Under the pieces are notes generated by a model. The model was not told where the DNA came from, did not search any database, and saw only the letters and a list, made by a program, of their open reading frames with translations. From Escherichia phage Pu-Krd-SF1, in the sequence record PQ249395: a DNA stretch of 64,000 bases. One strand, written 5' to 3'. A program made the position numbers and the translations under genes. This document shows, piece after piece, positions 2,330 through 2,501 of this stretch; the stretch's first letter is position 1, and each line of letters begins with the position of its first letter.

Positions 2330-2383
2330 GTTTACAAGACTGTTCCTCTGTGGTATTATTACCTTATCAACTACGGAGGAACA
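2330..2383 (+). promoter_or_regulatory. early promoter plus SD-sequestering inverted repeat
   Basis: GTTTAC 2330-35, TATTAT 2354-59; TGTTCCTC (2341-48) pairs with GAGGAACA (2376-83) covering the SD. Confidence 0.5.
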
Positions 2384-2387
2384 GAAA

Positions 2388-2501
2388 ATGAAAAAGATTG
2401 TTAAAGCTATATGGAATGTAGTTATAATACTAGTAGTTTTGAGTATATTCCCAATCGTTTTAATGATTGATGTATTAAACGCTTACTTTGGATTTATGTG
2501 A
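2388..2501 (+). CDS. small hydrophobic membrane peptide (37 aa; internal ATG of the 2292..2501 ORF)
   Basis: ATG at 2388 preceded by GGAGGA SD; the longer track ORF has no SD; hydrophobic sequence. Confidence 0.35.
   Translation: MKKIVKAIWNVVIILVVLSIFPIVLMIDVLNAYFGFM

Follow-up and report, generated by a model that had tools for sequence, protein, structure and literature searches.

A candidate promoter-gated translational switch at the early gene ndd.4 of a T4-like phage

The closest described relatives of the element analysed here are the late-promoter hairpins of T4 genes e, soc, 49 and I-TevI, together with those of I-TevII, segB and Aeh1 mobE. In these genes the Shine–Dalgarno sequence (SD) and/or the AUG is buried in a helix and the late promoter (TATAAATA) lies between the two arms; transcripts started at the gene's own promoter lack the 5' arm, and RNAs arriving from upstream are silent for that gene. 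In gene e this structure is reported to lower lysozyme synthesis about 100-fold (PMC3014915 section 29). A second related group is that of the promoter-early stem-loops (PeSLs) described in T4-like phages (Arbiol 2010; Comeau 2014). PeSLs are short intergenic cassettes that run from a stop codon through a strong early promoter (consensus TTTACW-N17-TAYWAT) and a stem-loop to the SD and ATG of the next gene; they are repeated at several loci of hyperplastic regions, beside indels. Their stem-loops occupy one of five positions (in the upstream AT-rich region, overlapping the -35, between the -35 and -10, overlapping the -10, or just before the start site) and have been read as terminators or attenuators and as recombination sites; one of them lowered lacZ expression (PMC2839356). 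Finally, the literature on the RegB endoribonuclease reports that structure protects GGAG motifs and that modB RNA forms a structure, and draws no link to promoters.

The DNA that we analysed (the window) is a stretch of 64,000 nucleotides of Escherichia phage Pu-Krd-SF1, a Tequatrovirus genome segment that runs as the reverse complement of the T4 map and is 99.9% identical to Escherichia phage Pu-Krd-SF4 over positions 1800-3100. From its left end the gene order is rIIB, denB.1, denB, an 87-aa ORF, ndd.6, ndd.5, ndd.4, ndd.3/2a, ndd.2, ndd.1, ndd, stp, ac, 52.1, 52 and motA, and the gene content upstream of ndd.4 varies among relatives. The element occupies the short intergenic space between ndd.5 and ndd.4 (Table 1). 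As in a PeSL, the ndd.5 stop codon is followed by a strong early promoter with a stem-loop and then by the SD and ATG of ndd.4; the cassette is likewise repeated at several loci in a hyperplastic region, beside indels, and ndd.4/ndd.5 is itself a published PeSL example. The 87-aa ORF between denB and ndd.6 (1882-2145; PHROG 2390), which seems to correspond to the 87-aa ORF268 of phage PST, is reduced in T4 to 8 codons (MKIAEIEL) that share its C-terminus and stand behind the same type of early promoter. An indel beside a promoter cassette is what the PeSL model would lead one to expect.

Table 1. Features of the ndd.4 locus and of the related cassettes in the window. Paired values are SD opening energies in read-through versus primary transcripts (kcal/mol)
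Feature	Coordinates	Strand	Remarks
Upstream T4-type early promoter	1825..1854	+	GTTTAC-N18-TACTAT with TG
ndd.5 ORF, upstream neighbour	2225..2323	+	Stop TAA 2321-2323, 17 nt 5' of the stem
-35 element GTTTACA	2330..2336	+	ndd.4 early promoter; GTTTAC 2330-2335, sigma-70 hexamer TTTACA 2331-2336
5' arm CTGTTCCTCTGTGGT	2340..2354	+	Within promoter spacer; anti-SD CCTC; last base is the first T of the -10
Extended -10	2351..2359	+	TG 2351-2352, TATTAT 2354-2359
Loop, 15 nt	2355..2369	+	Contains -10 positions 2-6 and the predicted transcription start
3' arm ACTACGGAGGAACAG	2370..2384	+	SD GGAGG 2375-2379; GGAG 2375-2378 is the RegB core motif
ndd.4 ORF	2388..2501	+	ATG 2388-2390; conserved 37-aa hydrophobic peptide; PHROG 3098
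alc instance	33531..33591	+	Early promoter and hairpin 33537-33587 sequestering the SD; alc start 33589; 18 vs 3.1
Fourth, weaker instance	39380..39439	+	110-aa ORF, start 39437; 10 vs 0.24
Third instance	46619..46682	+	Hairpin 46627-46674; 96-aa ORF (start 46680) downstream of alt; 14-16 vs 1.9

An earlier note on this sequence had pointed to two exactly complementary octamers, TGTTCCTC (2341-2348) between the -35 and -10 of an early promoter and GAGGAACA (2376-2383) over the SD of the small ORF downstream. Both the positions and the two placements are borne out by our analysis, and the pairing is longer than had been claimed: the stem is continuous over 15 bp, 13 of them Watson–Crick and two G.U, and the whole GGAGG lies inside it. 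The hairpin has a minimum free energy of -23.2 kcal/mol (z = -5.4 to -6.9), which none of 200 dinucleotide shuffles equalled, and among 25,576 sliding folds of 60 nt that covered the two strands of the entire window (0.1 percentile at -23.0) it is the 11th strongest locus, within the top 0.1%. When the shuffling was confined to the promoter spacer, again 0 of 200 shuffles reproduced the duplex between promoter and SD. The inner 5 bp (GTGGT/ACTAC) are not independent evidence, because they belong to two conserved promoter elements that many cassettes share, the extended -10 and the initial transcribed CAACTAC. Rfam covariance models gave no family match at 2330-2390, and the sole match in the region 1700-3200 was a chance-level one to 6A at 2052-2111 (E=0.98).

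The ndd.4 promoter is a near-consensus T4 early promoter (GTTTAC-N18-TATTAT with TG), fits the PeSL consensus as TTTACA-N17-TATTAT (2331-2359), and at the homologous site of OL960580 a T4-type early promoter is annotated. From sigma-70 geometry, transcription would start at about A2366, 7 nt past the -10. The 5' arm reaches no further than the first base of the -10, and an RNA started anywhere 3' of the -10 therefore lacks that arm. As opening energy we calculated the free energy needed to unpair the SD-to-AUG region (start-14 to start+2). The ndd.4 start gave 16.2-18.5 kcal/mol in read-through contexts, against 1.25 in an RNA that begins at 2366; the earlier proposal that the ribosome-binding site would be occluded in read-through RNA and translatable in the promoter's own transcripts is thus supported by computation. 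The same method applied to the validated T4 cases gave 15.0 kcal/mol for e, 15.8 for 49, 13.2 for I-TevII, 16.1 for segB and 7.5 for soc, so that the ndd.4 structure is in the range of, and no weaker than, the experimentally validated ones of e and 49.

In the scheme that we infer for ndd.4 (from the start site and the presence and amount of read-through RNA to the block on translation and its purpose), transcripts from upstream would cross the ndd.4 promoter without meeting a terminator. They may come from the early promoter at 1825, a likely source, or from promoters further up in the rIIB-denB region; on the + strand, a terminator scan from the 1825 promoter to 2330 found no terminator-like site, and in T4 early transcripts are generally extended. 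Such read-through RNA would carry both arms, would fold into the 15-bp hairpin as soon as the SD had been transcribed, and would block the 30S subunit at the ndd.4 start. Since the ndd.5 stop codon lies 17 nt 5' of the stem, a ribosome terminating there should leave the hairpin unmelted. RNA from the ndd.4 promoter would begin within the loop, without the 5' arm and with SD and AUG open. Thus ndd.4 would be translated from no RNA but its own immediate-early transcript, in a burst that ends with the shut-off of early promoters, and would be silent on the longer early or middle read-through RNAs. As a likely side effect, the paired GGAG would be shielded from RegB in read-through RNA. RegB may act on nascent RNA before structure forms (Durand et al., PMC1702504), and a case built on thermodynamics alone could therefore be weakened by kinetics. 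Every computational test that we ran agrees with promoter-gated sequestration of the SD and supports the predicted gating of the ndd.4 translation start by the hairpin; a promoter-gated translational switch on this early gene is in our judgement the best explanation, and a reasonably probable one. Why a 37-aa peptide should need such control is not obvious.

The likeness to T4 lysozyme and I-TevI that had been suggested for this locus stands only in part. Architecture and energies are alike: the promoter lies between the arms, the predicted primary transcript lacks the 5' arm, and RNAs from upstream are predicted to be silent for the gene. In contrast, the gating promoter is a sigma-70 early promoter and not a late one, so that one feature that defines the class is lacking, and the 5' arm sits in the -35/-10 spacer, unlike in the late-promoter cases. 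The permissive transcript of ndd.4 would be the earliest, and the silenced ones would belong to the same or a later class. Because the promoter is early, the biological purpose must differ from that of lysozyme and I-TevI; the logic expected is that of an immediate-early burst, rather than a delay to late times. As prior descriptions, the literature searched offered only the late-promoter cases, the PeSL cassettes and the work on RegB. The early-promoter version appears to be new: no description of SD occlusion gated by an early promoter was found in the literature searched, older subscription literature lying outside the scope of the search.

A different role for the hairpin is suggested by its annotation in OL960580, where it is labelled 'rho-independent terminator' in a feature that overlaps the early promoter and runs up to the ndd.4 start codon. 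The upstream promoter of that genome is likewise overlapped by a 'rho-independent terminator' annotation. The hairpin shares with intrinsic terminators that it is a stable, sense-strand, intergenic stem-loop. Unlike them, it has no U-tract 3' of the stem (AAAAUGAAAAAG; 3' flank AAAATGAAAAAG), its loop is of 15 nt, only 3 nt separate the end of its stem from a start codon, and the SD lies within the stem; the terminator scan made no call on it. We rejected the intrinsic terminator reading for want of the U-tract, and automated pipelines mislabel such promoter hairpins as terminators. In a broader form of this idea, the hairpin would be a PeSL-type stem-loop that attenuates or terminates read-through, or one at which the upstream mRNA is processed or its 3' end stabilised, and its overlap with the SD would be an accident of geometry, given a 5' UTR of only about 22 nt. 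PeSL studies, with their lacZ result and the placing of PeSLs at the ndd.4/ndd.5 locus (PMC4122927 Fig. 6A), speak for this. The 3' arm of the ndd.4 hairpin lies on the SD, at about +5 to +19, and matches none of the five PeSL subclasses; the action that we propose is on translation. Against the explanation stands that a need for a hairpin alone would be served by the tighter type around the -10. We consider this explanation unlikely, and the surveys described below bear on it further.

Is ndd.4 a singular case? The window contains 12 convincing early promoters, all of them on the + strand, and in four a large gap separates the opening energies of read-through and primary transcripts; in the other eight the two differ by at most 4 kcal/mol. 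T4 alc carries the same hairpin as the alc of the window (-33.1 kcal/mol, z -5.3), and the cassette at 46619 is a near-identical copy of the alc cassette. These two copies of about 55 nt (33531-33585 and 46619-46673), which comprise promoter, hairpin and SD, differ by 1 nt in the -10 and have unrelated genes downstream. The weaker version that had been noticed at 39395..39428 is real: a 9-bp stem (39393-39401 with 39422-39430) covers the SD GGAG, with a free energy of -12.1, z = -2.05 and 8 of 200 shuffles as good, and the SD region (GGAGAATAAAA) matches the RegB consensus perfectly. At other early promoters of the window (23369-23410, 36207-36246, 39772-39812, 18774-18812 and 1825-1854) the SD is left free; inverted repeats bracket the -10 (e.g. 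GGTAGGGTAATAG/CTATTACCCTATC and GGTAGAGTT/AACTCTACC), or in some cases a small hairpin lies inside the spacer (TACTAC/GTGGTA).

Similar genes were found when positions 1-100 kb of T4 were scanned, the window standing in for T4 100-165 kb. Read-through and primary-transcript opening energies (kcal/mol) were 18.4 and 4.7 for regB, 15.5 and 5.9 for motB.2, 14.8 and 2.9 for modB, 12.1 and 2.7 for e.8, and 10.2 and 3.1 for denV; nrdC.8 belongs here too (16.8 vs 3.5), the whole ndd.4 cassette with both arms being present 5' of it, and mrh.2 is a weaker case. The whole cassette also precedes a gene annotated as thioredoxin in EC.W5-4. In a set of 141 annotated T4 gene starts, opening took 10 kcal/mol or more in 6 of 25 genes proximal to an early promoter and in 8 of 116 others (Fisher p=0.019), and four of these eight are the known late-promoter cases. 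This enrichment of strong SD sequestration at promoter-proximal starts also counts against a merely accidental overlap of a PeSL-type stem-loop with the SD. No overall shift of accessibility at early promoters was found in the same 141 starts, the medians being equal (Mann–Whitney p=0.39), so that the gated genes form a distinct subclass and not a general property; about 70-75% of early promoters are without the switch. Three further T4 starts, at 59,495 (rI), 5,595 (39.1) and 72,915 (trna.2), have opening energies of at least 10 kcal/mol, and our pattern recognised no early promoter at them. Upstream of T4 gene 1 (75,374-75,429) there is a promoter-like site with a MotA-box-like TGCTT (GTTTAATGCTTCAG...TATAAT) and values of 14.5 versus 4.2 kcal/mol; middle promoters may use the same design too.

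To this we added a set of 91 non-redundant cassettes from IMG/VR contigs and the window. In eight of them the promoter-to-SD duplex was matched by at most 5 of 200 spacer shuffles (2.3 expected), and in six by none; the mean duplex energy of the 91 lay below the permutation null (-7.03 vs -6.23 +/- 0.20). As a point against gating, the TGTTCTTCC-type spacer is present also at promoters whose SD is not strongly paired, which suggests that spacer alleles have spread by recombination. Significant hairpins with a 5' arm in the spacer were present in 26 cassettes. Eleven of these reach the SD, while 14 end by the -10/start region, the published 'overlapping -10' type of PeSL; since these 14 avoid the SD, they must have an SD-independent function, a point in favour of the PeSL explanation for hairpins of this kind.

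The 26 hairpins also bear on a third reading, that the ndd.4 inverted repeat acts in the DNA, as a cruciform or recombination hotspot for cassette shuffling, or has no function and is a by-product of promoter elements and an anti-SD-like, pyrimidine-rich spacer allele. PeSLs recombine and form mini-circles (PMC2839356), copies of the ndd.4 cassette lie at other loci, cassettes have plainly exchanged promoter halves, and the promoter consensus by itself supplies the inner 5 bp. A cruciform requires pairing in both strands, but the ndd.4 hairpin is far more stable in the sense strand than in the antisense strand (-23.2 vs -15.6), and the sense fold is the better one in 21 of the 26 significant hairpins (mean -16.8 vs -13.2 kcal/mol, Wilcoxon p=4e-4), in which G.U makes up 11% of pairs; no such bias was present in control cassettes without hairpins. 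This asymmetry argues that the element acts as sense, that is, read-through RNA, and on its strength the DNA-level reading was rejected as the main explanation. The shuffled spacers, which never attain the observed ndd.4 duplex, and the compensatory changes described next also speak against it. We regard action in the DNA, or lack of any function, as very improbable.

The conservation of the pairing was followed in orthologues of ndd.4. The 65-aa ORF beside ndd.4, when used as a query, led to only 5 close loci. Among 11 Tequatrovirus variants (T4, PST and IMG/VR contigs) no double compensatory change was found in the ndd.4 stem; the variation is one-sided, which made shuffle controls within the genus uninformative. 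In the 13-bp core, the four positions that vary all stay paired (C-G to U.G, U-A to U.G, G-C to G.U), the loop is freely variable, and the two outermost pairs are broken in some variants. T4 ndd.4 is annotated as 42 aa long, from an ATG that arises by a C-to-T change within the 3' arm (ACTATGGAGG; T4 166,747-166,764, aligned to window 2373-2390). The conserved 37-aa ORF, with its well-spaced GGAGG, begins 15 nt 3' of that codon, so that the T4 start is probably mis-annotated.

Outside the genus, the Dhakavirus phages UP19 and CUA3 have an ndd.4 homologue (MKNLLKAIWNMF...) preceded by GTTTACA-TCTCCATTGGACATGA-TACTAT (spacer also given as TCTCCATTGG..). Here a 12-bp stem (CATCTCCATTGG / CTAATGGAGATG) covers the ndd.4 SD, with an opening energy of 15.2-15.3 kcal/mol. 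Both arms differ from those of Tequatrovirus and yet remain complementary, and the architecture is unchanged. In CUA3 the -35 of the cassette is GTATAC and not GTTTAC, and the full SD hairpin is kept; the hairpin may persist where the promoter is weakened.

A deeper comparison was possible with denV, for which 36 distinct upstream regions were folded, 31 of them from T4-like contigs of about 120-178 kb. Thirty of these 31 are gated (9.4-23.8 vs 1.4-6.0 kcal/mol), the remaining contig giving 6.7, and the gated regions use at least 8 different complementary arm pairs in two architectures. In architecture A the 5' arm lies in the spacer directly after the -35 (e.g. TCTCCTGTAG/CTACAGGAGA, TTCCTCCAAG/CTTGGAGGAA, CTCCGTTTG/CAAACGGAG and TCTCCTGTG/CACAGGAGA). 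In architecture B it consists of the -10 and discriminator and pairs with the SD through the AUG (e.g. ATGATGTCTTCC/GGAGGACATCAT, ATAGTAGCCTT/GGAGGCTACTAT, TAGTGTTCTC/GGAGAACACTA and GATGTCCTCC/GGAGGACAT). However much the sequence changes, the promoter-side arm invariably pairs with the translation start. This conclusion rests on the per-sequence folds and not on RNAalifold, which on a plain MAFFT alignment of the leaders showed three pairs changed on both sides, indels making the alignment poor. The five jumbo-phage contigs are not gated and have another promoter type. At denV loci on jumbo-phage contigs of over 340 kb a G+C-rich, terminator-like hairpin stands upstream of denV, its stem-loop holding the -35 TTGAC of a sigma-70 promoter (e.g. 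GGGTTGACTTCGGTCAGCCC), and the SD is not sequestered. The compensatory change in the Dhakavirus ndd.4 and the denV orthologues argues for selection on the predicted pairing. The constancy of the partner at both denV and ndd.4, despite changes of sequence and architecture, is hard to reconcile with a PeSL-type stem-loop that meets the SD by accident.

Could the pairing serve mainly to hide the GGAG from RegB? In long RNA this would preserve the polycistronic mRNA for ndd.3 to ndd, whereas the exposed GGAG of the short primary transcript would be cut. The GGAG of ndd.4 lies within the 3' arm and is free of pairing in the primary transcript alone, GGAG motifs held in secondary structure are safe from RegB (PMC3014915 section 8; PMC1702504), and known RegB targets are found among the gated genes (regB itself, motB.2 and modB); the cassette at 39380, with its perfect RegB consensus (PMC3014915 section 8), fits as well. 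The ndd.4 site (GGAGGAACAGA), in contrast, agrees with only about 8 of the 11 positions of GG*AGRAYARAA. Furthermore, denV is RegB-resistant for reasons of sequence (PMC1702504) and is nevertheless the best-conserved gated gene, and its architecture B pairs the AUG too, which is unnecessary for protection from RegB. Shielding from RegB as the main role therefore seems to us most doubtful, and we return to gated translation as the preferred reading.

As one locus, ndd.4 is of moderate interest; as a member of a class with regB, alc and denV, its interest is greater. Our more tentative proposal, to which we give somewhat less than even weight, is that self-gating by early promoters is a general, unrecognised layer of T4 gene control, in which roughly one in four to one in three T4-type early promoters would carry an anti-SD arm in the spacer or in the -10/discriminator, as at regB, alc, denV, modB, motB.2, nrdC.8, e.8 and ndd.4. 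T4 is a reference system for phage gene regulation, and the reviews consulted give only late-promoter examples of promoter-gated SD occlusion. On the practical side, annotation pipelines label such hairpins as terminators overlapping promoters, and phage and synthetic-biology design could draw on the cassettes as insulators of about 60 nt that combine a promoter with an RBS and are ready for use.

What would such self-gating mean for T4-like phages? If the proposal is true, ribosomes would translate the first gene downstream of a gated promoter solely from its own immediate-early RNA, and the gene would be insulated from heavy tandem early and middle read-through, so that immediate-early and delayed-early expression would be separated at the level of translation. 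This would explain how tandem, very strong early promoters escape cumulative over-expression of the genes downstream, as well as the burst-like synthesis of dosage-sensitive takeover proteins. The GGAG sites in long mRNAs would be protected from RegB, and for key takeover factors such as RegB, Alc, ModB and DenV the shut-off of the promoter would be tied directly to the shut-off of the protein.
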